From an uncultured bacterium (GTDB lineage: Bacteria; Hydrogenedentota; CAZGCA01): DNA of 64,000 nucleotides. The position numbers were made by a program, and so were the translations under genes. The notes beneath the pieces are model-generated. The model saw only the letters and a program-made list of their open reading frames with translations, searched no databases and had not been told where the DNA came from. The stretch's first letter is position 1. Every line of letters starts with the position of its first letter. This document shows positions 7,043 through 57,683 of this stretch, in pieces. The stretch lies in NCBI GenBank assembly GCA_964524145.1, contig CAZGCA010000010.1:13807-77806 (forward strand), given 5' to 3'.

Positions 7043-8484
7043 TCTTCACCTCGCCATACGATATCGCCGGACCTGAACTCATGTGTGCCGCCGTCGTCGA
7101 TCAGGTTCTGCCCGATGCTGTACAGAAGGAAGCCGTCGTCTGAAGGTTGGTACAGGTACGGATTGCCGGTAAACGGGTCGACGGGCAGCGAACCGCCGAA
7201 TTCCGGGGCAATGGCATCCAGGCTTTCCGGATACGATCCGGTGCGCGCATGGTGTTGTTCCACGAGAATGCCCATTTGCATCAGGTCGAGTATGGCTTCG
7301 TGCCGTGCCTGCGACTCGTACGCGCGCATCAAGCCAGGTATCAGCCTGTCCGAGAGAACCCGCGTGGGCGCCAAGCTCGAAAAATCCATCTCTATCTGAT
7401 TCATCTCGGGTGCAGCCTCGTAATACGGTTGCTCGGCAGCCGAACAGAGTCGGCCTATGAGGTCGGCGTACGCTGCCTCGTCCATGTTCAGCCAGGGCCT
7501 TCCCAACGGACTCCTGTAGAAGTCTCGGATCAATTCATCGATCGTGTCTGGAGCTCCAGCTCCAAGGTAGAACGCCAAATCAAACGCATCCCGTTTGGCG
7601 GGGTTAGGTTCACGGAGACCGGAGAAGATCTGGAGGCCCATATGCAGTTCTCCGGCCAACGAATCGGCGAAGGCACGCCGGTCGCGCCCCCGGGCGATCT
7701 GCATCATGAGCCGGCGGGTCTGTTCCGGTGAAAGGTCCGCGCCCTCGAGCGAAACCTGCAGCCCACTGCTTAGGATGCCGTTCATCGCTATCCGCACGAA
7801 CTGGCTGATAAGCACAGGTTCCTGCTTCAACGCCTCGCCCAGTTTCATCCCGGCAATAACGTCCTCGAACGCCTCGGTCTTGTTCCCTTCCATCGCCTTG
7901 ATGATTGCGTCGGCACGAAGCAGTCTGGCGCACTCACGCATTGGAGCGAGATGCGGCAGGTCCATCGCCAACCCTTTCGAGAAATCGAGCGGATAGACGG
8001 GGCCGCCGCGCTCGGAAAGCTGCCGGATTTCGCGTACCACATCCTGGTTTTCGGCCAGCAATTCGGCAACCTGTTGCCGCGTTTCGTCACTCCAGTCATG
8101 CCACCGTTGTGGAACATCCTGCCAGGGAACGTCGCTGGCTCGTAGCGGCTTCAACGTCGTAAAGAGAAGCTGATCGTACCCTTCCATGATCTCCATCGCG
8201 TCTTCCGGAAACCCCTCGAATGGCGAGGTTCTTTGTTGCCCGGCATCGTCTGCGCTCTCCTCGGTGAAAACGCTCCAGTCGCCGGAAAGCTCAGCGTAGA
8301 GCCTCTCGTACGCGTCTATCGTTGCGGGCTTCCGAACGTTCGCAAGCTTCGAAGCGAGGTTCTTTTCCGTGACAAGCACAAATGAGACGCAGGCCGCGAT
8401 AACGAATCCTGCCACGGCGGCAAGTATGAGTACCGGCCGTCCAACGGACCGCTGCGTTCCACGTGTTGCTCTGTCGTCTTTCAC
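7039..8484 (-). CDS. GspG-like C-terminal domain protein, paralog 3
   Basis: Conserved blocks ADRGGPVYPLDFSKG...LAGELHMGLQIFSGLR and a C-terminus PVDPFTGNPYLYQPSDDGFLLYSIGQNLIDDGG. There is a 4-nt overlap with the flanking paralogs. Confidence 0.6.
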   Translation of the reverse strand: MKDDRATRGTQRSVGRPVLILAAVAGFVIAACVSFVLVTEKNLASKLANVRKPATIDAYERLYAELSGDWSVFTEESADDAGQQRTSPFEGFPEDAMEIMEGYDQLLFTTLKPLRASDVPWQDVPQRWHDWSDETRQQVAELLAENQDVVREIRQLSERGGPVYPLDFSKGLAMDLPHLAPMRECARLLRADAIIKAMEGNKTEAFEDVIAGMKLGEALKQEPVLISQFVRIAMNGILSSGLQVSLEGADLSPEQTRRLMMQIARGRDRRAFADSLAGELHMGLQIFSGLREPNPAKRDAFDLAFYLGAGAPDTIDELIRDFYRSPLGRPWLNMDEAAYADLIGRLCSAAEQPYYEAAPEMNQIEMDFSSLAPTRVLSDRLIPGLMRAYESQARHEAILDLMQMGILVEQHHARTGSYPESLDAIAPEFGGSLPVDPFTGNPYLYQPSDDGFLLYSIGQNLIDDGGTHEFRSGDIVWRGEE

Positions 8485-9818
8485 TGCTCACCCCGCCAGA
8501 CTATATCGCCCGACCTGGAGTCGTGTCTGCCGCCGTCGTCGATCAGGTTCTGCCCGATACTGTACAGAAGAAAACCGTCATCTGAGGATTGGTACAGGTA
8601 CGGCTCGCCGGTAAACGGGTCGACCGGCAGCGACGTGCCGAGGTCCCGCGCAATGACATCGAGGCTTTCCGGATACGAGCTCGTTCGCGCGTGATGTTGT
8701 TCGATCAGGATACCCAACTGTATCAGGTCAAGCATGGCTTCGTGCCGCGCCTGCGCTTGGCAGCTCTGGGCAAACGCAGGCGCCAGAATACCTTTTGCCA
8801 TCCCGGTGCGCGGCAAGAGCCAGGGACCTCCTCCTCCCTCGATCCGGTTGAGTTCCGGCGCTGCCTCGTAGTACGGCAGTCCGGCTGCAGAGATCACCCG
8901 GCTCATCACTTCGATGTGCCCTCCCTTGTCCGCGTTCAGCCACGGTCTTAACGGAACACCAAGGATCCTGCCTGCAGTCCCTCCCGATATCTCGACGTCC
9001 GGGAATTGATCGAGCCCGAGATACAATTCACCGGCGAGCGATTCGGCGAACGCGTTGCGGCGGTCGGCATGATCAATTTGGCCCATGAGCTGACTGGTGA
9101 GTTCAGGGGACAGGTCGCCCCCGTCGAGAGAGTTCTGCACGGCGTCGCACATGGTCCCGTAGAGTGCGAAGCGCACGAGCTGCGAGATGAGCATAGGTTC
9201 CTGCGCCAGCGCGTCGCCGAGCTTCATTCCGGCGATGATGTCTTCGACAGCCTCAGAGTGGTTGCCTTCGCTCGCTTTAGTGACGGCATCAGCGCGCAGC
9301 AACCTGCAGCACGATCGCAATGTATCAAGATGCTGGAGGTCGACTGCAAAACCTTGCGACAAATCGAGCGCGGATAATGGCCCGCCGCGGTTCGCCATCC
9401 GCTGGATCTCGCCAACGAGATCCTGGTGATTGCCGAGGAACTCCGCCACGCGGCGCCGCTGTTCGTCGCTCCAGTCGTCCGGAGGGTCCTGGTAAGAAGA
9501 GTCGTAATCCGCCAACCCCTCAATCCGCTCGATCCGTTTGAACAGACGATCATATCCGGCGACGATCTCTGCCGCGTCTTCCGGGAACCCTTTGAATTCC
9601 GAGTCGTCCTGCGGCCCGAACTGCGGGACCGTCCCTGCTACACCGGAAAGCTCCGCTGTGAGTTGCTGGTACGCGTCTATCACGGCAGGTTTCTTGACTT
9701 TGGCAAGCTTAGCGGCAAGGTTTCGTTCCGTAAGAGCCAGAGACAGCACGTAGAGGGTCGCCAGGCAGCCGAAGACAACCAGAGCGATTACCCACCGGAG
9801 AGATGACTTCTTCTGCAT
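8481..9818 (-). CDS. GspG-like C-terminal domain protein, paralog 4, the first gene of the operon
   Basis: Same family: the N-terminus MQKKSSLRWVIALVVFGCLATLYVL is a signal anchor, and the C-terminus is PVDPFTGEPYLYQSSDDGFLLYSIGQNLIDDGGRHDSRSGDIVWRGEQ. Confidence 0.6.
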   Translation of the reverse strand: MQKKSSLRWVIALVVFGCLATLYVLSLALTERNLAAKLAKVKKPAVIDAYQQLTAELSGVAGTVPQFGPQDDSEFKGFPEDAAEIVAGYDRLFKRIERIEGLADYDSSYQDPPDDWSDEQRRRVAEFLGNHQDLVGEIQRMANRGGPLSALDLSQGFAVDLQHLDTLRSCCRLLRADAVTKASEGNHSEAVEDIIAGMKLGDALAQEPMLISQLVRFALYGTMCDAVQNSLDGGDLSPELTSQLMGQIDHADRRNAFAESLAGELYLGLDQFPDVEISGGTAGRILGVPLRPWLNADKGGHIEVMSRVISAAGLPYYEAAPELNRIEGGGGPWLLPRTGMAKGILAPAFAQSCQAQARHEAMLDLIQLGILIEQHHARTSSYPESLDVIARDLGTSLPVDPFTGEPYLYQSSDDGFLLYSIGQNLIDDGGRHDSRSGDIVWRGEQ

Positions 9819-13290: not shown

Positions 13291-13419
13291 ACTCCTTCTG
13301 GACGAGCGTCGGACGCAGGGGCAACGTTAATAGAACCCTTCCCTCTTCTTGGTCGGGGGCTAATGGTATCATGGCGGCGCGGCAGCGTCAAATCGAGCCG
13401 CAAAGACCGGCTACCACGC

Positions 13420-13490
13420 ACTGGACGATGTTAGAACTCTGGCAGCGCCTCTCAGGTCCGCTGCTTAGTTGAAGCTCGATTGTCTTGTTC
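13420..13490. mobile_element. Short remnant of the IS transposase 3' coding end (copy F)
   Basis: gcactggacgatgttagaactctggcagcgcctctcagg...gcttagttgaagctcg is homologous to 17445-17500 and to the coding end of the 45905..46204 transposase fragment (ctggaagcgagaagagaactcgaggctgag). Confidence 0.4.
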
Positions 13491-14941: not shown

Positions 14942-15084
14942 AAATCATCCCTCCTTCTCTGTCACCGAACGGCGCGGACCAAGCGCGGTTATTTGTCGGC
15001 GCCGCCATCCGACTCTTCCCATTTGCACCTGTGCTTTGTAGAAGCGCACTATAGCGGGGCCGGGATTCCAACCCGCGACCTCTG

Positions 15085-15200
15085 GTTGGTAGAGATTCGG
15101 CTTCGTTCCCAGGTTAGCGGCCTTCCTTCAAACTAACGTTTGAGCCTTCAGTTTCGTTCGTGCTTCAAGTATCGCCTCCCTTCTTCCGTAGTATACATCA
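15085..15200. mobile_element. IS transposase 3'-end remnant (copy C), terminus truncated
   Basis: ggtagagattcggcttcgttcccaggttagcggccttccttcaaactaacg...agtatcgcctcccttcttccgtagtatacatc aligns with 25395-25525 and, in reverse complement, with 17480-17560. Confidence 0.5.
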
Positions 15201-15601
15201 GTATACATCGTCATGGATGACGTTGGAAAGTGCTTCGGAGTGGAACCAGAGTAGCAGCCTGTTGCATACCCCCCGCCTCTTGTGTCTAATCATACTCGGC
15301 ATACAACCGGATGTGGTGGGTGCAGTGAGAGTTGCGACAGCTAACTCCCCGTAGTGCGAACTCAGCGAAACATTGCCCGGGGATGGCTCGTGGTCCCGGT
15401 CTATCGAAACTTCTGTGACCGCAACGTGACATACACGGTGACACCTCCGAATGAGCAGCAAATGCAATAGAAACGGAACCACTCAGCAGGGAGGGAACCT
15501 CGGATCAAATGTGCGCAACTTGACACACACTACCCAACGGGTGCTACACTTTTACACCGCCACCGCCAAACCTAAACGTACGTACCTGAAAGGAAACGCA
15601 C

Positions 15602-16906: not shown

Positions 16907-16979
16907 ATGGCTCCCCGGATAGCGCATGCTGCGGCATCTCGGCTTCGCCTTGACAGCTTAAATCGCACCGCCGCGACAG

Positions 16980-17440
16980 GATGGTTAATCCCGCTGGGGC
17001 CGGGACTCTGTGTTGAGCGTCAGCTGGCCGAGCTCAAACAGAATGTGGAAAACTGGCTTGACTTGATCGGAAGCGGCACGGCGAGAAAGACCGGGTCAGC
17101 TGAGAGTCTGCTCGAGAAGATCGGACACGCCGAAAAGCAGGGTAAGCAAATCGAGCATGAGCTTATTGTGCTGGAGCTCGAACAGGGCGAACTTGAGAAG
17201 CAGGTCCTTAACGCGGAAGTCATGCAGGACTCGCTTATCCGGTTCCGAGACCTCTTTGATTTGGCTACCGATGAGGAAAAAGAGTACCTGTTCCAGTTGA
17301 TGATCGGGCGGATTATCTGGACTCCTGAGGGAATAAAGAAGGGCCTGTACGATCGACCGACCGATACAGGGCGCTTGTCCAAGCCTCATGATGTTAACCA
17401 GAACAGCGATTCTTCGCTGAGAACCGCAATATGCCTCCCC
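16980..17440 (+). pseudogene. C-terminal fragment of a large serine recombinase (coiled-coil and terminal helix), degenerate
   Basis: ORF 16907..17491 encodes a coiled-coil segment (LAELKQNVENWL...ELIVLELEQGELEKQV) followed by LFDLATDEEKEYLFQLMIGRIIWTPEG, the characteristic extreme C-terminus of large serine recombinases. There is no catalytic N-terminal domain. It abuts an IS remnant. Confidence 0.4.
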
Positions 17441-17444
17441 GCAC

Positions 17445-17586
17445 TGGACGATGTTAGAACTCTTGAGGTAGCACTCAGGAAGGTGGCTTAGTTCAAACGC
17501 TGGCTCGAAGGAAGGCTGCTCACCTGGGAACGAAGCCGAATCTCTACCCTAATTCGACCCGGCCACTGTCCCAAATGTTCTGAAGA
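17445..17586 (+). mobile_element. IS transposase 3'-end remnant with terminal repeat (copy D)
   Basis: ...cgaaggaaggctgctcacctgggaacgaagccgaatctctaccctaattcgacccggccactgtcccaaatgttctgaaga. The terminus gtcccaaatgttctgaaga is shared with the copies at 46189-46207 and, in reverse complement, 25366-25384. Confidence 0.55.
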
Positions 17587-17760: not shown

Positions 17761-19017
17761 CTAGTCTACCGGGAACATGAGCTTGCTTGAGACCACCGTC
17801 TTGCGCTCATCCATCACAGTCAAGAACCAGATCTGGGCGTTTTCCGGGGGGCGCTTCGAGGTGATAACGTCCTGCTCAATGGTCGCCGGTTGCTTTAACC
17901 ACTTGCGGGTTCGGGGATTCCCCGGAAGCGCGTCCAACGTGTAGTGAAGCTCCGCTGCAACCAATTTCGTCTTTGTGTCGACCTTTGCCGATACGAGCGT
18001 TTCTGTGATTTCCGGCGAGGAGATCCTGGCCAGCGGCATTCCATTTTCGAGGTGATGTCTGATAAAGACCTCGACTGCCTTTGGACGGTCAAAGATGTGT
18101 CCATGCGGCATGTCCGGCACGAACCGAATGTTCTTTTCCGACCGAACCAGATCATAGGTCCTGGCATAACTGTCTGGCGGATATGCGAAGTCCTTTCCAC
18201 CGTTTGCAAACAATATCGGCATCGTTGCGGAACCAACATATTGGGAAGGATCCCAGAGCTGAATCCATTTGGCCCTGCTTTCAGCCGACATCTTCTCGAA
18301 CTCATTGAGCCACGTGCTGTTTTCATGCAGAAACCCACAGCCGTATACCGGAACCGCAGCTTTGAAACGACTGTCGAGCCCCGCCACAATGCAAGTAAGG
18401 TACCCGCCCCAACTGATGCCGGTGATGGCTGTCCGCTCGTCATCGACTTCAGGAAACGAGAGTATGAGCGAATGGGCGCGCATCACATTGGCGACGGCAT
18501 GATAGGTCCATTGCTCAGTGGGCGACTGGTCGATAGTTTCAAACTTCATGTCATGGCCCTGGCCCGGCCCGCCATCCGGCAACCGCACATCCTTCTTCGG
18601 GCCGCAACCGGCCAGGTCCATCGCGATGGCCGCGTACCCCCGCTTTGCCCAGAGCCGGACCCAGTTGGGAAATGCGGTTCCGCCACCGCCATGAACAAGA
18701 ACGACTGCCGGAAGCTGCTTGTCTCGGGTTGGATCACCCGAAACCGTCCCCGGAGTTGCATAGTATGAGAACACACGGGTTGTAATTCCCTTGTATGGTT
18801 CGCTCTTATAGTACAATGATCGGACTTCCTTCCCCTCGGCCCACTCAAACTCGGGGGGCTTGCTCAGCTCTTCGAGATCCCACGGTGTTGTTCCGGGCAA
18901 CGAATTTGCTCGGCGGATGGGTTTGGTGTCGGCAGTGACGACGCACTGCGCACTCACGGCCAAGATCGCGCCGAAGACCAGCCAGAAACGGCTACGTAAT
19001 ATCTTTTTCATCTCCAT
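17761..19017 (-). CDS. Secreted alpha/beta hydrolase (acetyl xylan esterase / dienelactone hydrolase-like)
   Basis: The signal peptide MEMKKILRSRFWLVFGAILAVSAQ starts at the internal ATG 19017, which has an upstream AGGAAGG. VVLVHGGGGTAFPNW and a GISWGG nucleophile elbow are present. Confidence 0.65.
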   Translation of the reverse strand: MEMKKILRSRFWLVFGAILAVSAQCVVTADTKPIRRANSLPGTTPWDLEELSKPPEFEWAEGKEVRSLYYKSEPYKGITTRVFSYYATPGTVSGDPTRDKQLPAVVLVHGGGGTAFPNWVRLWAKRGYAAIAMDLAGCGPKKDVRLPDGGPGQGHDMKFETIDQSPTEQWTYHAVANVMRAHSLILSFPEVDDERTAITGISWGGYLTCIVAGLDSRFKAAVPVYGCGFLHENSTWLNEFEKMSAESRAKWIQLWDPSQYVGSATMPILFANGGKDFAYPPDSYARTYDLVRSEKNIRFVPDMPHGHIFDRPKAVEVFIRHHLENGMPLARISSPEITETLVSAKVDTKTKLVAAELHYTLDALPGNPRTRKWLKQPATIEQDVITSKRPPENAQIWFLTVMDERKTVVSSKLMFPVD

Positions 19018-19152
19018 TCTCCACCTTCCTATCCATAACGCTTGCCATGACGGGCAGGCAATGGCCGTGCGATGCGCGGCTATGGCTTGTCGTGGTCGAT
19101 GGCTTTGATCGGCCTCCTCGGGATGGACGGCTTCGCACAAGCGCGGGGCTCA

Positions 19153-19860
19153 CTAGGAACCCTCGGATTCCTTGTGCTTGATGGGCAGCAGCTTGATATT
19201 CTTGAACCAGCACTCGCTACCGTGGTCTTGGAAGCCGATATAACCGCTCCGGGGATGGTCCTTGTAGTTCTGATCCGTGAATTTGTGCCTGGTGCCGTCG
19301 GGGCGCATGTTCGGCTCGGCGAATTCATCCAGGTCCATGTGTATCACGTGCTCGCCGTTGAAGACCACGTCGATGATGTTCCGGTCGCAGGTAATAACGA
19401 TATGGTTCCATTTGCCCGCGGGTTTCATGGCGTTCTTCGTCGGCTTCACCAGGTCATAAATGGCGCCCGTATCGTGATAGCCTGCGCCGGTGGTGTCGTC
19501 GATGGCCACTTCGATCCCGTTATAACCCACGTCCTTCCCACGCTGGCGTTTCAAGGAGAAGGTGCGCAGGAAGATCCCCGTGTTGCAGCCGGGCTCGATC
19601 GCGAAATCCAGCGACAACACGAAGTCCGACCACATTTCCTTGTGAATCATCATGTACCCGCCGCATTTACGTGGGTTGATACAGCCGTCCTCAACAGGAC
19701 GCCGGCTCGCGCGCCGGCTGCTGGTCATCCATCCGTCCAGGGTCTTCCCGTCGAACAGAAGGAGCCACCCATCTTCCTTTTCCTGTGCGGTTAGTTCGTT
19801 GTCCGCAGCCAACGCAGCGCCACACAGGGACAGCATCATGATTGCGATTATCGTTTTCAT
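19153..19860 (-). CDS. DUF1080 (3-keto-disaccharide hydrolase / LamG-like) secreted protein
   Basis: The signal peptide MKTIIAIMMLSLCGAALA is at the internal start. EDGWLLLFDGKTLDGWM...GIFLRT...GYNGIEVAIDD...TGAIYDL...GKWNHIVITC...NGEHV...GYIGFQDHGSECWFKNIKL is the classic DUF1080 pattern. Confidence 0.75.
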   Translation of the reverse strand: MKTIIAIMMLSLCGAALAADNELTAQEKEDGWLLLFDGKTLDGWMTSSRRASRRPVEDGCINPRKCGGYMMIHKEMWSDFVLSLDFAIEPGCNTGIFLRTFSLKRQRGKDVGYNGIEVAIDDTTGAGYHDTGAIYDLVKPTKNAMKPAGKWNHIVITCDRNIIDVVFNGEHVIHMDLDEFAEPNMRPDGTRHKFTDQNYKDHPRSGYIGFQDHGSECWFKNIKLLPIKHKESEGS

Positions 19861-20109
19861 GTCCGCTCCTCGATGAACGCGACGAGACCGCCGCGTATTG
19901 GGCCAAAGGCCAGGCGTCTCTCCTCTTGACGGGTCCTCAGAAGGGCAGAGACCCATACTCTATTCTCTGATTCACTCTAGACGGGAAGTTCCTATTCCTT
20001 ACTGACAATGGCACCCGGGTCACTCGCGTTAGTGACCACGCCATTCTAACATTTTCTGGAGCCCAAGTGCATTCGAGATGTTCTTCGCGACGCGTCCCAC
20101 TAAAGACCG

Positions 20110-20395
20110 ACTATACGTATTCGGAACATCTGGGAAAGATTGGAGCCGGTGGTAGAGTAGATATTCGGCCTCTGGCAACCGCCCAGGTTGAGAGCTTCGC
20201 GTCGTGCTAGCGTCCGGGCCCTGAGTTCCATTCCTGTTGTACCCCCCAGCGTGCCCGAATAGTCGATTTCTTCCTTGACACCCCATCTCAATGCAGGTAT
20301 GCGACCTATAGAGTAGATCTTCCGGTCAGAATATCTACAGAAGTTGGATGCTCCATATCTGGCTTCCCGTACTGGACGATGTTAGAACTATGGAG
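20110..20395. mobile_element. IS transposase 3'-end remnant (copy E), internally deleted
   Basis: ttcggaacatctggga...ggtagagtagatattcggcctctggcaaccgcccaggttgagagcttcgcgtcgtgc aligns with 25375-25470. atttcttccttgacaccccatctcaatgcaggtatgcgacctatagagtagatcttccggtcagaatatctacagaag (20262-20343) is near-identical to 25748-25826. The tggacgatgttagaact block at 20374-20394 matches copy F. Confidence 0.55.
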
Positions 20396-20477
20396 GCGAG
20401 GGCAGACACGAGTCCAATCGATAACGCCGTGGCGCTTGTTGCTTGGGTATGATGATCAGATGACCAGTTCGCAACCT

Positions 20478-21413
20478 TCACTTCTGAAGAATCAACGGCT
20501 TCGACTCTAGTGTCTGCCTGATCCCCTTGGCGACATCACTGAAGCCCTGATCTTGATTTTTCCACCCGCCAGCGACAGGTTTTCCGTCGGTAGGCAATGC
20601 CTTTAACTTGGAAAACGGTGCTTTATGCCAGTCACAATCTCTCAAGATGACAGGTATCACTATCGCACGTTTCAGTTGATGCTGCTGGAGTGCGAATTTC
20701 ATCTCTACCCCAGTACAGTACTCTGACGCCATAAAGCTCCGACTTACAAGAAGTAGAATCATTCGAGCTTTCTTCAGATTCTCGTCGATCTCATTGTCGA
20801 CCTCTCCGCCAGGAAGAATCTGACGATCATACCACTCGGATATGTAACCTTGGTTCTTCAAGAGACTCAAGTGGTCGTCCAACTTTTTCAGCATCCTCTT
20901 GTCTTCGTGGGAATACGAATAGAAAAGGAGTATTGGATCCTGGTTGGCCCTGCCGTTCTCTCCGGACACGATACTAGTCACGCCATCTGGTGCGTGTACG
21001 GCACCGGGCTGCGCTGGCTGGATGGGCACCCCGCTGTTCCCAAGACGCTCAATGAACAAGTTCCGCTCACCGTAAGTGCTGTAGTGGGAATAAATGGCGC
21101 TGAGCTGATCGTGGCTTATGGGCTCGCTGAGCCCCGCCAAGAATCTCACTGACTTCCCGATGATCTCATCGAAATCGTTGCCCATCAATTGAACAGAAAC
21201 GCAAAGGAGAACCTTGTGAAAACCGACAGGGTCCACATCCCATGTCGGCAATTCTTCAAGCAAACGGTCGATGAAATGGGATGGGTCCAAATGAGGAACG
21301 TTGAAATTCTTTTGGCTATGATACCAATCCAATGCTAGGAATCCCCACAGATCCCCGTCGAGATAGCTCTTGATGTACGACAGCCAATCCTTCATTTTAT
21401 TCTTATCCCACAC
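20478..21413 (-). CDS. TIR-domain protein (unknown roughly 150-aa N-terminal domain, C-terminal TIR_2-like domain with the catalytic Glu motif)
   Basis: The C-terminal ILLFYSYSHEDKRMLKKLDDHLSLLKNQGYISEWYDRQILPGGEVDNEIDENLKKARMILLLVSRSFMASEYCTGVEMKFALQQHQLKRAIVIPVILRDCDWH follows the bacterial TIR pattern (FISYSHED...W.DR.I.PG......I...A...ILLVS..F..S.YC..E). It is the last gene of the 4-gene operon. It is AT-rich relative to its surroundings. Confidence 0.7.
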   Translation of the reverse strand: MWDKNKMKDWLSYIKSYLDGDLWGFLALDWYHSQKNFNVPHLDPSHFIDRLLEELPTWDVDPVGFHKVLLCVSVQLMGNDFDEIIGKSVRFLAGLSEPISHDQLSAIYSHYSTYGERNLFIERLGNSGVPIQPAQPGAVHAPDGVTSIVSGENGRANQDPILLFYSYSHEDKRMLKKLDDHLSLLKNQGYISEWYDRQILPGGEVDNEIDENLKKARMILLLVSRSFMASEYCTGVEMKFALQQHQLKRAIVIPVILRDCDWHKAPFSKLKALPTDGKPVAGGWKNQDQGFSDVAKGIRQTLESKPLILQK

Positions 21414-23169
21414 AAGGGCACTCGTGAGCGCGCCGAGGCGGAGATGCCCATGAATAGAGTGCTACGTAGTGAGAATCATGGAGAAACTCACCAATCGAGA
21501 AGCCATTAGCGGTTCTGTCCAAAAAGACGGCGAAGGACAGAATGTTGGCATCGTAGAACTCACAGATTGCACGCAAAGCGGATAGTGTTTTGAAGTGATG
21601 TGCTGCTTGATCAACAATCAGTACCGAAGCCGCCGTTAGTGCCTCAGATCCATAGGTGTCGTTGATGAAATCGACCACCTCCGAACCAACGTGCTGTCCA
21701 GCTACCATAGCAAGGAGATCGCGTGGTATACCAATCACGCTGTCCGGTCGCAGACCTAGAACGTCGCTGATAGCCAAACCGAGTCTTTTGGCCTCAGGCT
21801 CGTCGGGAATCACGATCTTACGAATCCACCGCGGGATTATGCCCCGCGTCGTAAGCGCATTGCGAATCCGGAGCGCAAGGTCGAAGCTATGCCTCCCAAA
21901 AATCGGCTCTGTCATAACCCGAAAGTGATAGTGATTGGGAGTCCGGTCTGACGGCCAGTGCCCCACACTATAGAAATCATCGTGCTGCGCCACCAATTCC
22001 CAAAACGTCACAGGGTCGAAGCTCTCGACCTGACGAGCGAAAGCATCGAAATACTGACCCTTAATGGGTGGTATGCCCTGGTCGCAGTACTTGCAGGAAG
22101 CGTCGACCGTATTGATAGCTGAAAAAGGCACATCAAAGTAAAAGAGGGTGCTAGCTTCCACGAAATGGGGCGTATTCCGAAAACGACCGATGCCAGCGAC
22201 CACTATATTTCTGCAACCGCTTGAATGCAATTTCCGAACGGTGTCATTGAGGGGATACATGGGCCCAATGAAATCGCATAAAACAGCAGTGCTGTTGGCC
22301 GGTGTTCTTGTGGCGTCATCTTCGGATGCCAAGAGACGTTCGCTGCTACCCTCGACGAGTTCTATCGCCAGTTCACGAATCCCGCCCATTGGGATGCCAA
22401 AGGGCCATACAGCGAAACTGGAATCGTGCATCCTAACACTAAGATCTTGCCGAAGCTGATTAACGAATGTCGCATTCTCTGCAAGCTTGCGGACAGAAGC
22501 CACGATAGGCAGGTGGAAGATGCGACCGCTGCAGTCCAATTCAAAATGGCCAAACAAGCATCCCATCATCGACTCGATCTCGGGTGCAGAGAGAGTAGGT
22601 CCTGGTTCACTTGCTCTTTCTGGCCTATCGTATTCAGCTTCCAGCGGCGGCAGACCAACGATACTTGTGAGAGATCCATGACACAGCAGTTCCGGCGAAT
22701 GTTCGGGATTGTCAGAAAGCAAAATAAGGGTGATCTTTTTCTTGTTACATAAAGGCATAAGTTTCTGTCGCAGAAAAACGGATTCCAGAAAGGCAAAAGG
22801 GTTTGCCACGGCGACGGTTATGTACCGAGGCGCAACAGCTTTCTCCCTACCGAGTGTAACGAAGAGCGAGTTACAGAAGTCGTCGTATAAATCAACGTCT
22901 GCATTTGGGTCCAGAAACTCGAGAAGCAGTGCGTGACAGGGAACCTTCCGCTTCCTGCAAAGTATCGCGGCCAATCCATCCAGCAAGGGACCAAGATCTG
23001 ACGAAAGCACGATTTCTCTTGGCTGCCTGAACTGCATTCGCGTTGCTGAGGACCCATCGATCAACGACAAGAAAGATCGATAACTATCTGTTGGAATTAC
23101 CGTGTAGACAACCGAATCTGGGCGATAGACTTTTGCTGCGTAGACAGGAAGCCTGTCTGCACTAGGCAT
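21403..23169 (-). CDS. Large protein with a C-terminal phosphoribosyltransferase (PRTase)-like domain and a terminal Cys/His cluster
   Basis: The C-terminal VLIVDQAAHHFKTLSALRAICEFYDANILSFAVFLDR resembles the PRPP-binding loop of type I PRTases (hydrophobic4-D-x6-T-L; compare AGAKVVAIAVLIDR in PyrE/Apt). CKYCDQG and HECPC motifs are present. Its start overlaps the GHKL gene stop by 8 nt and its stop overlaps the TIR gene start by 11 nt. Confidence 0.5.
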   Translation of the reverse strand: MPSADRLPVYAAKVYRPDSVVYTVIPTDSYRSFLSLIDGSSATRMQFRQPREIVLSSDLGPLLDGLAAILCRKRKVPCHALLLEFLDPNADVDLYDDFCNSLFVTLGREKAVAPRYITVAVANPFAFLESVFLRQKLMPLCNKKKITLILLSDNPEHSPELLCHGSLTSIVGLPPLEAEYDRPERASEPGPTLSAPEIESMMGCLFGHFELDCSGRIFHLPIVASVRKLAENATFVNQLRQDLSVRMHDSSFAVWPFGIPMGGIRELAIELVEGSSERLLASEDDATRTPANSTAVLCDFIGPMYPLNDTVRKLHSSGCRNIVVAGIGRFRNTPHFVEASTLFYFDVPFSAINTVDASCKYCDQGIPPIKGQYFDAFARQVESFDPVTFWELVAQHDDFYSVGHWPSDRTPNHYHFRVMTEPIFGRHSFDLALRIRNALTTRGIIPRWIRKIVIPDEPEAKRLGLAISDVLGLRPDSVIGIPRDLLAMVAGQHVGSEVVDFINDTYGSEALTAASVLIVDQAAHHFKTLSALRAICEFYDANILSFAVFLDRTANGFSIGEFLHDSHYVALYSWASPPRRAHECPCVG

Positions 23170-24250
23170 TCGATACGTTCTCCAGCGGCGTTTGGATCCT
23201 GAGTAACGTTCCCGGACTCTCTAACAGTGCGTCGTTCGCATCCGTCTTCCGGGACGTGAAGTCAACGCAGGCTTTCCCGGCACGAATACGGAGCTCACCC
23301 TTCTGTTTCAGTACGTGGGACTTCAGGTAGTATAGTCCGACGCCTGCGCGTTCAGACTCGGAACTGACGCCTTTCTCGGTGGAAATCCTGATTAGCTTTG
23401 AGTCCAGTATCATTTCCGGCTCAGTGAAATACTTGATAAGGTCAGCGTCACTATACTTTAGCAGCTTCTTTCGGGCGCCCGATTCCTGAAACGCGGCTCT
23501 CAAGACGCGAGGTATACCTGCGCCATTGTCAGATATGGCCAGTGTCAGGTTCTTAGCATCCAGACGCATCGAGAGATTAACGAAAGACCCCTTCGCATGG
23601 AGCAATGAGTTCCGTATGCCCTCGCGTAAAACGCGCTGCATAAAGGTGCGTGTGACCTGGTTATCCCATCCGCACATCTGGCTAAGAGCACCAACAATGA
23701 CTTGGCCCTCAAGTTTGTCGAATTGTCGCTGCTGCTTTTCGACTTGCTCGGGGTCCTTTTCTTCGGCCGAAAAGGTAGATATCTCGAGTATCCTGAGGGT
23801 GTGAAGGACAGTCTCATCGCCAAACTGATCTGTTCCCTTTGCGTGACGGTATTGGGACACTCGGTCTAGGTGTGATAACTGTTTACGGCTCAGCAGATTC
23901 GCGGGTTGATCAACACACAGCGAGAGCGCATGGAAGAACTGCCAACGAAGCAGAAAATCCCAGAGTTTCTCGCCTTTGCTGTCCGTAGGCTCAGGAAAGA
24001 TGAGTTGGATGTCATTCCCTTGAATCCTCAGTTTGTGAAGAACAGCAATGAGCCAGAGCAACGTACCCAAGTCGTGCCAGTATGATCGCGACAAGTCAAA
24101 GATAATATATCTGCCGCATGCCTTGTCAAGACCGTCGATATGTTCTGCTTGAAACGCCTTGGCAATAGTCTTCTCCAATTTCAACTGCTTCAGGTAGTAT
24201 TCTGTTCGAATCTTCAGAGGCGTTCCTATTGCCTGTTCGTCAATTGGCAT
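23162..24250 (-). CDS. GHKL-superfamily ATPase (HATPase_c-like) with an N-terminal STAS-like segment
   Basis: N-box REGIRNSLLHAKG, G1 ISDNGAGIP and G2 GVGLYYLKS are present. The N-terminal YIIFDLSRSYWHDLGTLLWLIAVLHKLRIQGNDIQLIFPEP is STAS-like. There is no obvious His-kinase H-box or dimerisation domain. Confidence 0.55.
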   Translation of the reverse strand: MPIDEQAIGTPLKIRTEYYLKQLKLEKTIAKAFQAEHIDGLDKACGRYIIFDLSRSYWHDLGTLLWLIAVLHKLRIQGNDIQLIFPEPTDSKGEKLWDFLLRWQFFHALSLCVDQPANLLSRKQLSHLDRVSQYRHAKGTDQFGDETVLHTLRILEISTFSAEEKDPEQVEKQQRQFDKLEGQVIVGALSQMCGWDNQVTRTFMQRVLREGIRNSLLHAKGSFVNLSMRLDAKNLTLAISDNGAGIPRVLRAAFQESGARKKLLKYSDADLIKYFTEPEMILDSKLIRISTEKGVSSESERAGVGLYYLKSHVLKQKGELRIRAGKACVDFTSRKTDANDALLESPGTLLRIQTPLENVSNA

Positions 24251-24271
24251 GGCTTTCTCCCATGTAACCGG

Positions 24272-24973
24272 CTATAGGCGGCTTATCAGAGACTCTACTG
24301 CCTTCTGCAGGTCGTGTGCTTCATATATGGCACGTCCAACAATTGCATGCCAACGGGAACCCGCAGCTTGTGCAGCTTCGCTTATTTTGCCTCCTTGCGA
24401 AATGAAACCGGGGGCATAGAAAACGGGGTCCACCCCATGAGATGAGAGCAAATCCCTAATGTGGCTGATTACCCCTGGCTTGTTCCCCGGAACAACGTAA
24501 TCTTCAATTCCAAGAAAGGCGGAATTGGTGAACATCTTGTCAACGGCACGGTCTTCGATGTAACCACCGTCGGATGATAGGTATCTCTCGTGAGTCATAT
24601 GGCCGCCTGCTATGATTGTCAGTCCGATCTCTTGGGCTGACTGAATCCAAGCTGTCTGTGTAGCTGGACCCGACAGCGGGAACACAATCATCGCATCTAT
24701 ACCACTCTCCTTAATGGTCTTGGCGAAACCACGGCCCATATCAGGTATATCTGTGCACGCCTTTTGGTGGTCGTAAATCAGCGGCTTCTCTGTGTACCTC
24801 CGAGCAATCTCAACCAAGCTTGGGAGACCCGAAGATAGCGCCAGCGCAGCACCTATCTTGTACGCACCAATCCGAAGGATTGACTGTGTTTCTTTTATAA
24901 TGTCTTCGTAGCGCTCTTTGCTTACGTCGCATGCAGGAACAATACTGCGATCGATCTTAATTATGGTCGACAT
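24272..24973 (-). CDS. Orotidine-5'-phosphate decarboxylase (OMPDC) superfamily protein, PyrF-like fold; first gene of the operon
   Basis: IIKIDRSIVPACDV...GAYKIG, then LIYDHQKACTDIPDM (compare PyrF D-x-K-x-x-D-I-P-N-T), and the C-terminal IVGRAIYEAHDLQKAVESL (compare VIGRPVTQ...). Its 233 aa matches PyrF length. Confidence 0.55.
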   Translation of the reverse strand: MSTIIKIDRSIVPACDVSKERYEDIIKETQSILRIGAYKIGAALALSSGLPSLVEIARRYTEKPLIYDHQKACTDIPDMGRGFAKTIKESGIDAMIVFPLSGPATQTAWIQSAQEIGLTIIAGGHMTHERYLSSDGGYIEDRAVDKMFTNSAFLGIEDYVVPGNKPGVISHIRDLLSSHGVDPVFYAPGFISQGGKISEAAQAAGSRWHAIVGRAIYEAHDLQKAVESLISRL

Positions 24974-25365
24974 GATCAGCTACCTTTCTAAGGGCATGCC
25001 CACACTGGAGAGATGAAGAGGTCTGCGCACATCAGACTTTTCATTCCTCCCGTCTCCAAACAAAACAGCCGTTAAGTCTCACATTACCCGTAGGAACGGC
25101 GGCAATAGTGCCTGGAAACACCCGGGCCTATCAAACCGCCAACGCATCCACACCAATTGGGGGATACTAGTGTTGTAATTCGTCGTGAAAACCACCAGTT
25201 CTCGCCTGCTTTATCCCAGTCGTTGTGAGCGATACTGGGAACGACGGGTTACACTGTTCCTTACAGACTGACACTGTACCACCGCTCTGAATTCAATTCA
25301 ACCACTTCCCGGTTTCACCGAATACTTCGAAACACAAACGCATCACCCAAGGTCGAACGGTGTAC

Positions 25366-25830
25366 GTCTTCAGAACATTTGGGACAAATTAAAACCAGTA
25401 ATAGAGTAGAGATTCGGCCTTTGTATCCCAGTTTGGGAACCTCAGGTCGTGCTCGGGTCTGTGCCTTGAGCCTCCTCCGAGCCTCAAATATCGCTTCCCT
25501 TCTCTTGTAGTATGCATCATCAGGGGTAACGTGTCCCAAATTCAGTTCCCGAGGCTTTTGTAAGGGGCGCCTGCGCAAGATGCTGCAATGCGAGCCTTGC
25601 CTGGCTATCCATATGTTCTCTACTTAGTAGACGCGAAAACACCCTCTTTTCTTTCACCTTCGCTCCGAATTTGTGCCATCGCGTTCACTTGGCCAGATAT
25701 GTGCCGCTAAGGAATGGGTCTTCTCCCCCTCCGTTCCCATATAGTAGATTTCTTCCTTGACACCGCATCTCTTTGCAGGCATGCGACTTATAGAGTAGAT
25801 CTTCCGATTCAAATATCTACAGAAAGGCGG
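25366..25830 (-). mobile_element. IS transposase 3'-end remnant with terminal repeat (copy B); the rve integrase-core C-terminus is detectable
   Basis: ORF 25315..25578 translates to ...LGHVTPDDAYYKRREAIFEARRRLKAQTRA, homologous to ...[31 protein letters not shown] at 45905..46204. The end tcttcagaacatttgggac at 25366 is the reverse complement of the shared terminus. Confidence 0.6.
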
Positions 25831-26071
25831 TGCTGCAAAACCGGCTCCCCGGGTTCGTTTTCGCAGAGCAGTAATTCGAACAAACACGCCTCGCGGCTGA
25901 GTGTAGCCAAGATAAGACGTACTTGGCCTGCCGTCATGGGAGTTACGTTGAGAACCCACTGCGGAGGGAACATTGACCCTCGATTTACCGTCATGCTAGA
26001 ATCCGAACCGCACAGAGAAGCGTACCTAATTGGGTGATAGAAAAAGCACAGGAAGAGGAGCCAGGACACTC

Positions 26072-32993: not shown

Positions 32994-33050
32994 CTGGATT
33001 ACGCGATCTGCCAGGTAACATGCATCCGCTACCCGCGTCTCCAATTCGCT

Positions 33051-34442
33051 CTACACGGGAAGTTCCCAACCCTTACGGTATTCCTTGCTCACAATGGCAC
33101 CCGGGTTGCTCACGTTAGTGACCACGCCCTTCTTGTTGTCCCAGTGCAGTTTCTCCCCGGATTTCACGACGAGGTTGCCGAAATTCACCATCTCGGTGAA
33201 GGGTCCGGCGTAGTCGAAATTCGAGCACGCCGGCTCGCCGCCTTTGCAGGCATCAAGCCAGTTCTGATAGTGGCTCTGGCCCTTGACGCGAGGCAGCCAT
33301 GGGTCGGGTTTCTTGTAGTCGGCCATCTTCTCATCCGGCATGAGGCGTGACCGCCCTCCGTACTCGCCCGTCGTGATGATGCCCTCATCGCCGATCAAGA
33401 ACGACCCGTTCATGTTGTCGTCGCCCAGCACTTGATCTGCGGGTATGCCCTCGGGACGCTTGGGCCTGTTGTACACGCGCTCGCCGCCCTCCTGCCAATG
33501 CCCGTCATACCAGTACACATCCACCGGCGCCATCCCGGCCCGGGCGGGGAAGGAGTACTTTATCGTTGTGGTGAGCGGGAAGGTCTGCTCGTTCCTGCCG
33601 CGCTGCATGACCACCTCGACGGTGTAGTCCGGCGCCTCGACGAGCTTGAGCGACCAGAATATCGGGTCCATGATGTGGCAGGCCATGTCGCCCAGCGACC
33701 CGCCGCCGAAGTCCAGCCAGGCGCGCCAGTCATGGGGTGCATAGCCTGCGCCGTACGGGCGCATGGGCGCCGATCCGATCCAGCGATCCCAGTCCATATT
33801 TTCCGGCGTGACACTCGGTGGAAGAGGGTCCGGTCGGCCCTGGTTCTCCCAGACGGGCCGGTGGGTCCAGACGTGGGCTTCGCGCACCTCGCCGATGGCG
33901 CCGCGCCAAATCATCTCGCAGAGCTCACGCACCCCATTGCCCGAGTGGCCCTGGTTCCCCATCTGCGTGGCTACGCCCGCCTCACGCGCCGTCTCGGTCA
34001 ACAACCGTGCTTCGGCGACCGTGTGTGTCAGGGGCTTCTGCACGTACACGTGTTTGCCGAGTTTCATCGCCATATAGGCCGCCGGGGCATGGGTGTGGTC
34101 CGGTGTTGAGATCGTCACCGCGTCGATCTCCTTCATGCGCTCCAGCATATTGCGATAGTCTCTGTACTTCTTCGCGTTGGGGAAGGTCTTGAAGGACCTG
34201 GCGGCCCGGCTCCAATCCACGTCGCACAGGGCCACAACGTTCTCACGCCTGCACGAAGCAATATCGCCCCCCCCCTGGCCCCCCGCACCAATAGCCGCCA
34301 CATTCAGCTTCTCGTTGGGCGACACCTTCTTCGGCACGACCTGCGCCGTACTCAGCCTCGTGGCACACCCTGAAGCGGCGACTGCCGCCGTCGTCGCCCC
34401 GGTCAAGAACGCCCGCCGGGTCATATCTTTCTTATCGCTCAT
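33051..34442 (-). CDS. Gfo/Idh/MocA-family oxidoreductase with a TAT signal
   Basis: TRRAFLTGATTAAVAASG (twin-arginine) and a Rossmann motif NVAAIGAGGQGGGD. This is the typical Planctomycetota periplasmic oxidoreductase architecture. Confidence 0.8.
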   Translation of the reverse strand: MSDKKDMTRRAFLTGATTAAVAASGCATRLSTAQVVPKKVSPNEKLNVAAIGAGGQGGGDIASCRRENVVALCDVDWSRAARSFKTFPNAKKYRDYRNMLERMKEIDAVTISTPDHTHAPAAYMAMKLGKHVYVQKPLTHTVAEARLLTETAREAGVATQMGNQGHSGNGVRELCEMIWRGAIGEVREAHVWTHRPVWENQGRPDPLPPSVTPENMDWDRWIGSAPMRPYGAGYAPHDWRAWLDFGGGSLGDMACHIMDPIFWSLKLVEAPDYTVEVVMQRGRNEQTFPLTTTIKYSFPARAGMAPVDVYWYDGHWQEGGERVYNRPKRPEGIPADQVLGDDNMNGSFLIGDEGIITTGEYGGRSRLMPDEKMADYKKPDPWLPRVKGQSHYQNWLDACKGGEPACSNFDYAGPFTEMVNFGNLVVKSGEKLHWDNKKGVVTNVSNPGAIVSKEYRKGWELPV

Positions 34443-34800: not shown

Positions 34801-35129
34801 CGGCAAGAAACGTGAAGTTTCGCCGTTCAACCACCTCCTTTCAGCTTGCGACAAACATATACAACGTCTAATCGGGACTATAAGACAAGAATGTTGCATT
34901 GTCAAGGGTGACGTTGGTCGGCGCAATCATGATAATGCTGAGAAGGCCGACCGAGTGCGACGCAGTAGACGGGGGCAAATCCGGTGTCGCAGTAGAGCTG
35001 TGGTGAGAAAAGCGGGTTAAACACACCCGGGACACCCTTAATCGTTCAGCAATCCAATGAAGACATACCTGTAAAGCACTATGGATAGCAAGAAACACGA
35101 CAAACAGGCTTTCACCCACCAGGTGAGCC

Positions 35130-35440
35130 AAGCCATAACGACACCGCGAAGTCCCGCAGGGACGGTTGAGAATAGCCCAGGGGTTCACTGTGGTCGAAGC
35201 TATAACGACACGCCGAAGTCCCGCAGGGACGGTTGAGAATAGCCCAGGAGTTCACTCCTGGGAATCGGTATGATGCAACGGCCTTCAGTCCCGTAGGGAC
35301 GGCTGAACCCATTTCTTGAGGTCAAAGTCTTTCAGCCGTCCCTCCGGGACTCGATATGTTGAGGGAACGCCGGTGAACCGCAGGAATAAATTCCTGGGCT
35401 ATTGTCGTTCGTCCCTGCGGGACTCTGCAAAAACGTTCCG
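35130..35440. repeat. Cluster of direct and inverted repeats built on the palindromic core gtcccgcagggac
   Basis: The unit ataacgacacNgcgaagtcccgcagggacggttgagaatagcccagg occurs at 35130-35176 and 35196-35243. Degenerate direct copies (cagtcccgtagggacggctgaa) and inverted copies (agccgtccctccgggactcg; cctgggctattgtcgttcgtccctgcgggact) follow. It is intergenic, upstream of comM. Confidence 0.7.
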
Positions 35441-35563: not shown

Positions 35564-37126
35564 TTGTGGCATGGTGGAGGTGCCGAGGTGCTTGCCCGGG
35601 TCTATTCCGCGGCGGTAATGGGCGTCCACGCGTACCAGGTGGACGTCGAAGTGGACACGTCACGCGGTCTGCCTTCGTTCTCGACCGTTGGTCTGCCAGA
35701 CGCTTCCGTCAAAGAGAGCAAGGACCGGGTGCGTGCGGCGATACGGAACTCGGGCTACTTCTTTCCCGGCGGCGTGATAACCGTCAACCTTGCCCCGGCT
35801 GACGTCAAGAAGGAGGGCCCGGTCCACGACCTGCCTATCGCGGTGGCGGTCGTCATGGCCACGGGCCAGTGCGGCGCGCAATCCGTCGACGAGTACGCCA
35901 TGGTCGGCGAGCTGTCGCTCGACGGCACCGTCCGGCCGGTCAACGGGGTGCTCTGCATGGCGATGGGAGCCAAGGAGGCCGGCCGTCGAGGCGTCATCGT
36001 CGCCGAGGAGAACGCTGCGGAAGCAGGCGTCGTCGACGGTTTCGACGTGATACCCGTCAAACACCTGCGCGATGCCGTCGGGTTCATCGAGGGTTCGGTC
36101 GAGATCGAGCCCGTCCGCGTGGATATCGCCGAGGTGTTCCGGGAAAGCGCCAGGTACAGGGTCGATTTCTCCGACGTGAAAGGCCAGGCGCACGTCAAAC
36201 GCGCGCTCACCGTCGCCGCCGCCGGAGGCCATAACCTGTTGATGGTGGGCCCGCCCGGTTCCGGCAAGACGATGCTTGCGCGCCGGTTGGCCTCGATCCT
36301 GCCCGATATGACGCTCGACGAAGCGCTCGACACCACCAAGGTACACAGCATCACCGGCCTTACGAGCGGGAAGAACTGGCTGGTTGCTACGAGACCGTTC
36401 CGGTCGCCGCACCACACGACGTCCGGCGCGGCAATGGCGGGCGGCGGCGTGCCGCCGAAACCCGGCGAGGTCAGCCTGGCGCACAACGGCGTGCTCTTTC
36501 TCGACGAGTTCCCGGAGTTTAAGCGCGACGTGCTCGAGGTGTTGCGCCAGCCTGTTGAGGACGGTATCGTCTACATATCACGGGCGAGCTACGCGGTCGC
36601 GTACCCGTCGCGGTTCATGCTCGTTGCGGCGATGAACCCGTGCGTATGCGGCCATCTCGGCGACCCGTACAAGGCGTGTTCCTGCACGCCGGGCCAGATC
36701 CACCGGTACCGGTCACGGATAAGCGGGCCGCTGCTGGACAGGATAGACCTGCACGTCGAGGTGCCGGCACTGAGCTACAAGGAGATGTCCGCACGAGGCC
36801 CTTCCGGCGACGAGTCTTCGACCATCCGCGCGCGGGTGCAGGCGGCACGCGAACGGCAACGCGCACGCTACAGCGACGACGATATCGCCCAAAACGCGGA
36901 CCTGCAGCCGGGCCAGCTCAGAAAATACTGCGTGCTGTCGCCCGAGGCCGAAGAGATGATCAAGACCGCCGTCACACGGCTCGGGCTCTCGGCTCGGGCA
37001 TACGACAAGATATTCAAAGTGTCGCGAACGATAGCCGACCTCGCCGACGAACCCGACATAGGCATCGAGCACGTCTCCGAAGCCATCCAGTACCGCTCGC
37101 TCGACCGCGAATCTGCCCTGGTCTGA
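35564..37126 (+). CDS. comM: YifB/ComM-family Mg-chelatase-like AAA+ ATPase
   Basis: LARVYSAAVMGVHAYQVDVEVD...GLPDASVKESKDRV (N-terminal Lon-like domain), Walker A MVGPPGSGKTM, VLFLDEFPEF, and a C-terminal ComM domain. The antisense ORFs 35660..36484 and 35755..36486 are spurious. Confidence 0.85.
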   Translation: MWHGGGAEVLARVYSAAVMGVHAYQVDVEVDTSRGLPSFSTVGLPDASVKESKDRVRAAIRNSGYFFPGGVITVNLAPADVKKEGPVHDLPIAVAVVMATGQCGAQSVDEYAMVGELSLDGTVRPVNGVLCMAMGAKEAGRRGVIVAEENAAEAGVVDGFDVIPVKHLRDAVGFIEGSVEIEPVRVDIAEVFRESARYRVDFSDVKGQAHVKRALTVAAAGGHNLLMVGPPGSGKTMLARRLASILPDMTLDEALDTTKVHSITGLTSGKNWLVATRPFRSPHHTTSGAAMAGGGVPPKPGEVSLAHNGVLFLDEFPEFKRDVLEVLRQPVEDGIVYISRASYAVAYPSRFMLVAAMNPCVCGHLGDPYKACSCTPGQIHRYRSRISGPLLDRIDLHVEVPALSYKEMSARGPSGDESSTIRARVQAARERQRARYSDDDIAQNADLQPGQLRKYCVLSPEAEEMIKTAVTRLGLSARAYDKIFKVSRTIADLADEPDIGIEHVSEAIQYRSLDRESALV

Positions 37127-37128
37127 CG
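36968..37128. repeat. Direct repeat copy 1: the authentic 3' end of comM
   Basis: About 160 bp that reappears at roughly 93 % identity at 38466..38629 (gccg[tc]c[at]cac[ga]cggctcgg[gc]c[tc]ctcggctcg[ga]gcatacgacaagatattcaaagtgtcgcgaacgatagccgacctcgccgacgaacc...cgaatctgccctggt[ct]tgacg). Confidence 0.85.
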
Positions 37129-38465: not shown

Positions 38466-38629
38466 GCCGCCCTCACCCGGCTCGGCCTCTCGGCTCGAGC
38501 ATACGACAAGATATTCAAAGTGTCGCGAACGATAGCCGACCTCGCCGACGAACCGGACATAGGGACCGAGCACGTCTCCGAAGCCATCCAGTATCGCTCT
38601 CTCGACCGCGAATCTGCCCTGGTTTGACG
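38466..38629. repeat. Direct repeat copy 2: the displaced duplicate of the comM 3' end
   Basis: See 36968..37128. The copy is out of any long ORF context. Confidence 0.85.
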
Positions 38630-53312: not shown

Positions 53313-53335
53313 AGGAGATCGGCCTTTTACTTCTG
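53064..53335. repeat. Direct repeat copy 1: the 3' end of the PQQ-propeller gene
   Basis: About 270 bp repeated at roughly 90 % identity at 54846..55120. ORF 54862..55095 re-encodes MKQRLEGMKEIFASPVGAAGRVYFVGRDG...LFLKGKTYLYCIA. Confidence 0.85.
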
Positions 53336-57613: not shown

Positions 57614-57683
57614 AAACCAATCGGGGTACGCCCTGACAAGCGCATGCACGCACCTGTCCACGCTGCCAAGCATGGAAGCGAAC

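Follow-up and report, generated by a model that had tools for sequence, protein, structure and literature searches.

Rearranged right ends of an IS3-family element on both sides of a low-GC TIR operon in an uncultured Hydrogenedentota bacterium

MITE-like (miniature inverted-repeat transposable element-like) non-autonomous derivatives of insertion sequences (ISs) are short elements that lack a transposase and are made of IS ends, and MITE-flanked mobilisation units exist. In the composite transposon Tn6330 (ISApl1-mcr-1-ISApl1), directly repeated IS copies were later lost and the cargo was immobilised; the arms are identical, target-site duplications and ancestral dinucleotides are traceable, intact forms exist, and the loss amounts to almost exactly one IS length (PMC5821093). 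Here we describe a locus to be compared with both systems, in a 64,000-nucleotide stretch (the window) of contig CAZGCA010000010.1 from an uncultured bacterium of the Hydrogenedentota. Two related sequences, E (20112-20396) and B (25361-25880), bracket an island of low guanine-cytosine (GC) content that includes a TIR gene, one per side, and an earlier note on this DNA had proposed that an IS-flanked composite element delivered the TIR operon. As in Tn6330, directly repeated sequence of a single IS family stands on both sides of cargo genes, but here the copies are rearranged fragments that are 75-80% identical, no duplications were found and no intact version is known. The terminal parts of E and B are genuine IS3-family right ends, and we hold, with roughly even confidence, that both are IS debris that was not responsible for delivery of the operon.

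The terminal arm of E (20112-20228, minus strand) consists of the terminal inverted repeat and about the last 35 codons of orfB, and that of B (25361-25538, minus strand) runs from about orfB residue 283 through the stop codon and the terminal repeat. These limits come from blastn to the intact metagenome element L032 for B and, for E, from an alignment of termini and blastn to metagenome loci L042 and L056 and to copies of the type of C46 (45950-46213, plus strand), the best-preserved remnant in the window. In both stubs the right-end sequence comprises the final orfB codons and a terminal repeat finishing ...CCCAAATGTTCTGAAGACGTACA, with the orfB stop codon (TGA) inside the repeat, and the encoded OrfB C-terminus is conserved and ends ..RR. 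By blastn, the terminal arm of E is 76% identical to C46, 72% to B and 86% over 106 nt to L042/L056, and that of B is 72% identical to L032 over 191 nt. An OrfB profile built from five metagenome elements matched C46 (E-value 1.2e-24), the copy near 15 kb (1.7e-10) and B (4.5e-7, at 'LGHVTPDDAYYKRREAIFEARRRLKAQT'), and tblastn with intact OrfB found 15087-15253 (minus), 25426-25542 (minus) and 45950-46144 (plus). A protein search with the translation of C46, which ends ...QMF*, returned 248 relatives; the 120 that were listed are rve_3 carriers or unannotated short fragments.

The position of the IS end was fixed by a metagenome scan with the 19-nt sequence gtcccaaatgttctgaaga, which the earlier note had quoted as the terminus and which gave 39 matches at 38 loci. 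Thirty-four of the 39 extend by 6 bases to ...GAAGAC(G/T)TACA or a close variant (CACA, TATA), beyond which the flanks diverge, indicating that the IS ends in ...TACA and that the true termini are 20112 in E, where the plus strand reads TATACGTATTCGGAACATCTGGG, and 25361 in B (TGTACGTCTTCAGAACATTTGGGAC). The quoted sequence is part of a real IS end, although in most loci the actual end lies 6 bases further. The terminus ...GTTCTGAAGACGTACA is common to B, C46 and a third right end in the window, C17, and occurs with changes in E. Several of the metagenome loci are intact 1.5-kb elements with an imperfect left repeat and an orfA (helix-turn-helix, RKKYSAEEKIRI...) overlapping orfB. The orfB of one of these, L025, reaches 178.5 bits against an NCBIfam IS3 cut-off of 160; the nearest intact relative, L032 (1166 bp), has a single open reading frame (ORF) and does not reach the NCBIfam cut-off for either IS3 or IS481.

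IS3-family elements encode a DDE transposase in orfA and orfB, move by copy-out-paste-in, have terminal inverted repeats of the form 5'-TG...CA-3' and make target-site duplications of 3-4 bp. Like them, the stubs combine the OrfB C-terminus with a terminal repeat finishing ...TACA; unlike them, they lack orfA, the catalytic core and the left end. Throughout the 64-kb window, tblastn with OrfA and OrfB found neither orfA nor a DDE catalytic core, and by tblastn and the OrfB profile only the last 30-70 OrfB residues are represented. No left IS end is present among the relics, of which only the last 100-290 nt of the IS survive. Because orfA and the catalytic core are absent, the stubs are relics and not an IS, and they are relics of an undescribed member of the IS3 family. 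The remark in the earlier note that only 3' ends persist and that the window holds no intact copy was thus borne out, and samples containing this organism yielded no assembled intact copy with this terminus. The population occurs in JGI samples 3300008516/7, 3300028837 and 3300005782 and in ENA ERZ25073496.

E and B match each other in two places, as seen by blastn of E against the window. The first match pairs 20114-20225 with 25363-25470 (72% over 112 nt, E-value about 5e-12) and the second pairs 20243-20369 with 25725-25851 (80.3% over 127 nt, about 2e-28); repeat finding and blastn agree that both are collinear and on the same strand. The second contains the nearly identical blocks of about 80 bp that had been reported for E and B, which are real: over the central 80 nt the two are about 88-90% identical by eye. 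The E-values and the composition of the matches rule out chance and low complexity, so that the similarity is not limited to short low-complexity stretches, and the terminal stubs, far from having opposite orientations and no shared termini, are both on the minus strand and both carry the terminus. The longest identical runs are of about 18 nt. The two matches are separated by 15-18 nt in E but by about 186-255 nt in B; E thus resembles B minus an internal stretch of about 240 nt. The corresponding spacer of B (25539-25717) had no match in any search, and its counterpart is missing from E in the E/B alignment.

Beyond the terminal arms, each copy has an inner arm on the opposite strand. In E this arm (20236-20396, plus strand) is made of the shared block (20236/20243-20369) and, contiguous with it, a repeat that we call R (20357-20396); in B (25718-25880, plus strand) the block (25718/25725-25851) is followed by a degenerate R-like stretch. 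The description of both copies as lying in minus orientation consequently holds for the terminal stubs and not for the block and R. Similarly, the transposase C-terminal remnant that the copies were said to share is present in their terminal parts (by the OrfB profile and tblastn for B, and by blastn for E), and the block of about 80 bp has no transposase match.

The link between the inner arms and the IS comes from R. The block runs directly into R (GGACGATGTTAGAACT) in E and in contig L063, and R is also present at 13.4 and 17.4 kb, on the plus strand throughout; the R of E is 85% identical to 17429-17468 and 95% identical over 22 nt to locus L037. Positions 3003-3150 of L037 match window positions 17592-17445 (83.8% over 148 nt, E-value 2e-40), from which it follows that a single right-end unit comprises R, some 30 nt and the terminal 100 nt, and the distance of R from the terminus equals that of the canonical P-D-D-V codons (GACGATGT in both). 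Since the block is contiguous with R, the block and R of E would together be a plus-oriented right-end fragment, inverted relative to the minus-strand stub, in which R is cut off about 130 nt short of the expected position of the terminus. To judge from their sequences, then, both E and B consist of two right-end fragments in inverted orientation to each other, with R degenerate in B.

The block itself is rare. The minus-strand ORF over B, searched against 1.84 billion representative proteins, had a single match, P0248 (E-value 5e-7), on contig L063, and this contig turned out to contain the block a third time, with 83.5% identity to E and 82.6% to B, nearer to each than E is to B. The L063 block adjoins a truncated acyl-CoA-synthetase gene, and only these three copies are known. 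Between E and B, the 25 mismatches of the block are split 9/8/8 over the codon positions. Comparison of the block with intact IS references by blastn, tblastx, Smith-Waterman alignment with shuffles on both strands, OrfA and OrfB profiles and Pfam gave no match. Because the block has no IS match of its own, what speaks for its IS origin is its linkage to R, which suggests that the block is IS-derived. Examined as a possible RNA, promoter or terminator, it matched nothing in Rfam, showed neither a sigma-70-like nor a terminator-like site and folded no better than its shuffles. Block and R were absent from the viral contigs searched, and a genome collection, which does not include the source genome, held no match to the block pattern or to the 588-residue protein of the island.

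Several more specific identities for these sequences were considered and set aside. Reading the block as the 'GKIERYHRS' region of orfB on the minus strand fails because the two are not colinear, with 90 codons to LG.VTPDD in B as against 45 in intact OrfB, and no search supported it. An assignment to the N-terminal region of orfB drew on a Smith-Waterman match in B only and received no support from the OrfB profile, and similarities of the block or R to the left terminal repeat or to orfA were non-significant.

Elements bounded by two right ends exist in this IS group. L037 is a 795-bp transposase-less element between two inverted right ends whose arms are 79.6% identical over 98 nt, and L023 is a 1043-bp analogue of the same layout in another IS subfamily. 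Lacking a transposase, such elements could be moved only in trans, by a transposase encoded elsewhere. The layout of E and B, a minus-strand terminal arm and a plus-strand inner arm, matches that of L037 and L023, with a second terminus only hinted at in E and absent in B. In being short and having an inverted right end of this IS group at either limit, L037 and L023 resemble MITE-like derivatives; E and B differ from such derivatives in having no demonstrable second terminus or target-site duplications, and just three copies of the block are known. In the metagenomes more widely (loci L020-L057), solo right-end fragments of 55-100 nt from related IS3-family elements far outnumber intact copies, and some, as in L037 and L023, form inverted pairs with termini outward. 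A further contig, L057, in which two solo right ends lie 6.6 kb apart, contains lipoprotein genes and no island.

What the two copies border is best defined on the left. GC content drops to about 0.50, from 0.57-0.60, over the stretch that starts at about 19.9-20.4 kb and ends at about 26.0 kb, and at the left junction the E terminus abuts a relic of a Gfo/Idh/MocA oxidoreductase gene (19980-20075, minus strand), of which about the last 32 codons remain. The relic was recognised by tblastn with a paralogue at 33051-34442 (minus strand; residues 431-463, E-value 1e-3) and is supported by a DNA repeat between 19964-20047 and 33038-33133. The left start of the foreign TIR cluster is thereby fixed at the IS terminus, 20112, which borders this truncated native gene. 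On the right, the sequence shared with a relative (89% nucleotide identity), in which clpB instead stands upstream of the GH2 gene, begins only at 25964, and this places the change between 25852 and 25964. We found no empty site: 10 contigs with an identical DUF1080 neighbour gene all match the window over their full length, all eight of them that reach past 20478 carry the island, and the orthologues of the GH2 gene (86%, 73% and 70% identity) lie in three contexts that are all non-syntenic. One short contig of the same population, L012 (window 18808-20125), ends 13 nt inside the E terminus, which is compatible with an assembly break at a repeat.

On the composite reading, two direct copies of the IS or of a derivative moved the operon as a single unit into the oxidoreductase gene, and deletions later removed inner and left parts of either arm and the right outer end. 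The low-GC, rarely seen operon does have directly oriented remnants of one family on either side, the E terminus does abut a broken native gene, and direct-repeat composite transposons that later lost their ISs are documented, as for Tn6330 (PMC5821093). Nevertheless, we consider this account unlikely, and the proposal that such an element delivered the operon is unsupported by what we found. The arms are not each other's closest relatives: over the terminal 120 nt E and B are 75% identical, no closer than the pairs among E, B, C46 and C17 in general (73-77%, with E-C17 at 77%), the terminal arm of E is nearer to L042/L056 (86%) than to B, and the block is nearer to that of L063 (83%) than E is to B (80%). 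To the right of B, nothing resembling an inverted repeat beyond chance occurs in 25852-26040, a 9-mer (AAGACGTAC) at 25913 being non-significant given the number of comparisons, and no candidate pair of boundaries, including the outer ones that the earlier note had singled out, has a direct repeat of 4 bp or more, with 3-bp matches at chance level. Nor is the native gene restored, since the 5' 1.3 kb of the oxidoreductase is found nowhere in the window, including to the right of B, and the event was therefore not a simple insertion. The two flanking copies, although of one family and directly oriented, are rearranged pieces, neither of them an IS, and their shared inverted bipartite structure predates the split of E and B, so that at no stage were the arms a pair of intact ISs. 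The arms are also missing from operon relatives elsewhere: in four inspected contigs with relatives of the 588-residue protein (43-48% identity), there were no arms and no IS or block adjoining. A source of transposase is likewise absent from the window and from the population contigs. Paired IS scraps alone are thus no proof of a composite transposon.

Two further accounts strike us as improbable, to a similar degree. By the one, Campbell-type or other homologous or illegitimate recombination joined circular DNA carrying the operon and one relic to a resident copy, or duplicated a segment; the direct orientation, the presence of the same bipartite unit on both sides and the resemblance of E to B minus about 240 nt would all fit, as would the island-like GC content of the B stub (0.48, against 0.53-0.56 in the others), a difference within the noise for 120 nt. 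Yet identical E/B runs of about 18 nt are too short for RecA-dependent exchange unless the copies diverged strongly afterwards, the 20-28% divergence of E and B equals their divergence from copies elsewhere, and among the relatives of the operon no circular molecule or plasmid bearing such a relic turned up. By the other, block and R are an independent dispersed intergenic repeat, REP-like (repetitive extragenic palindrome-like) or MITE-like with a conserved GTAGAT...ATCTAC hairpin, beside which the IS preferred to insert, E and B being two targets that were hit. The lack of homology between block and IS references would be expected of such a repeat, the L063 block adjoins the truncated acyl-CoA synthetase gene with no IS stub, and the hairpin differs among the three copies only in its loops, not in its stems. 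Against this, R, which directly adjoins the block in E and L063, is integral to the 148-nt right-end unit in two independent copies, the block folds no more stably than its shuffles, and a repeat of this kind would have just three known copies.

On our preferred reading, E and B are old copies, by now diverged, of a non-autonomous IS3-family derivative that had been rearranged beforehand; this derivative, either a double-right-end element or two nested right-end fragments, was present in several copies within an accessory region. The left junction would stem from an event anchored at the IS end of E, an insertion followed by deletion or a deletion adjacent to the IS end, in which about 1.3 kb of the native oxidoreductase gene was removed; such IS-mediated deletions, followed by erosion of the elements, could account for the present state of the copies. 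The TIR cluster would have come to lie between two of them by coincidence of density or through a rearrangement mediated by these copies, and the operon itself probably arrived by a route other than a composite transposon. The distribution of relics fits this picture. Five of the six lie within 13.4-25.9 kb and the remaining 51 kb holds one, at 46 kb; each sizeable spacer of the 13.3-26 kb stretch contains right-end debris (13.4, 15.1, 17.5, 20.1-20.4 and 25.4-25.9 kb), so that flanking by two copies is to be expected there anyway. E and B would thus stand at the edges of the cluster because this whole stretch is accessory and scarred by elements, and the location of the cluster in a stretch repeatedly hit by mobile elements supports its horizontal acquisition.

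Several observations pull the other way. Taken by itself, the block shows significant similarity to no transposase and no IS reference, and a second terminus could be demonstrated in neither copy: the candidate in E, the 11-nt TTCTGAAGAAT at 20481-20491, has the right orientation and is weak, being equalled in 1 of 500 shuffles against one reference and in 24-26 of 500 against others. Target-site duplications were not found and only one end per copy is recognisable. With no empty site at hand, GC content, the broken gene and the breakpoint of one relative are all that marks the true ends of the island. Finally, direct copies exactly around a foreign operon would also fit a composite unit or Campbell-type integration.

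Biologically, we regard the relics as ordinary. One by-product of their study is that what persists of this IS group, both here and in other metagenomes, is only right-end fragments, some of them in inverted pairs, and another is that the operon they flank combines a rare, conserved core of three genes with a fourth that is exchangeable. A more ambitious variant, to which we give very little credence, is that the bipartite units belong to a 'double right-end' non-autonomous family whose pairs carry gene cassettes and that the dense right-end stubs, present in each spacer of the 13-26 kb stretch, mark a cassette-shuffling hotspot driven by IS ends that captured a new defence operon. Were it true, MITE pairs would be a vehicle for defence islands in this bacterial lineage.

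With regard to the other relics in the window, the earlier note had listed four more remnants of the same family, starting near 13420, 15085, 17445 and 45905. Three are right ends or remnants of them, that near 17445 being of the R type, and the fourth, near 13420, is only an internal R-type piece of 70 nt. This internal fragment (13403-13473, plus strand) consists of R and about 30 nt without a terminus and is 77-85% identical to 17429-17496 and to L037 3104-3150. The remnant at 15088-15253 (minus strand), recognised by tblastn and the OrfB profile, contains C-terminal orfB codons and lacks the last 45 nt or so and the terminus. C17 (17445-17592, plus strand) is the 148-nt R-type right-end unit matched by L037, with its terminus ...TTCTGAAGACGCACA at 17592 and an inverted match to 15088-15143. 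C46 carries orfB from about residue 256 to the stop codon together with the terminal repeat, and is kept in place in three other population contigs (L001-L003). A candidate additional end at 52696-52710 proved to be a chance match within unrelated sequence.

Two of these relics adjoin other possible traces of mobile DNA. Directly after the 3'-truncated remnant at 15 kb, the stretch 15043-15087 (minus strand) looks by eye like the T-arm and acceptor 3' strand of a tRNA (GGTCGCGGGTTGGAATCCCGGCCCCGCTA) and could be an old attachment-site fragment; ARAGORN and Rfam found nothing in it. At 16907-17491 (plus strand), 3 kb from the TIR island, lies a C-terminal fragment of a large serine integrase (phrog_95, E-value 1.8e-7, residues 36-150), which starts directly past the stop codon of a phosphatase/xylose-isomerase-like fusion gene and whose ORF enters the IS right-end unit. 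The possibility that R is the 3' end of this integrase gene was rejected, as the phrog_95 match stops at residue 150 of the 194-residue ORF and R lies within the right-end unit.

The island itself, which we judge to be a more interesting object than the IS debris around it, contains a cluster of four genes on the minus strand (20478-24973, GC about 0.50), described from Pfam, PADLOC, the GC profile and a fold search. The genes encode an OMP-decarboxylase-like protein (24272-24973), a HATPase_c protein (23162-24250), the 588-residue protein, which has a phosphoribosyltransferase-like fold (21403-23169), and the TIR protein (20478-21413). The first three form a rare conserved operon core that recurs in L058-L062 (233, about 355 and about 590 residues, respectively), the family of 590-residue proteins comprising only 7 protein clusters among 5.8 billion sequences. 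The fourth gene varies: it encodes the TIR protein here, a 716-residue deaminase with AdoHcyase_NAD in L058 and L059, and a 470-residue PNP_UDP_1 phosphorylase in L060, and the neighbours of the related operons include Mrr, HsdR-N, AAA and helicase genes. Of the cluster, PADLOC (2023) recognised the TIR protein alone (ThsB-like, 5.8e-51). For the 588-residue protein, the AlphaFold model (pLDDT 77) matched phosphoribosyltransferases best, with borderline E-values of 1e-3 or weaker and a probability of 1.0. The operon looks like an undescribed defence system with exchangeable effectors.

The window also holds repeats unconnected with the IS relics. At 35123-35424, two Acido-Lenti-1 RNA motifs (RF01687; 51.9 and 37.5 bits) lie inverted and 120 nt apart, beside two tandem 67-nt repeats. 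Four tandem paralogous gene copies occupy 3763-9731, with a period of about 1.4-1.9 kb and 65-85% identity, and one of the four contains three tandem repeats of 141 nt (6256-6678). Three direct repeat pairs, 36966-37128 and 38467-38629 (94%), 53061-53349 and 54844-55132 (87%), and 55946-56140 and 57681-57884 (82%), have a spacing of 1.5-1.8 kb and probably represent paralogous genes.

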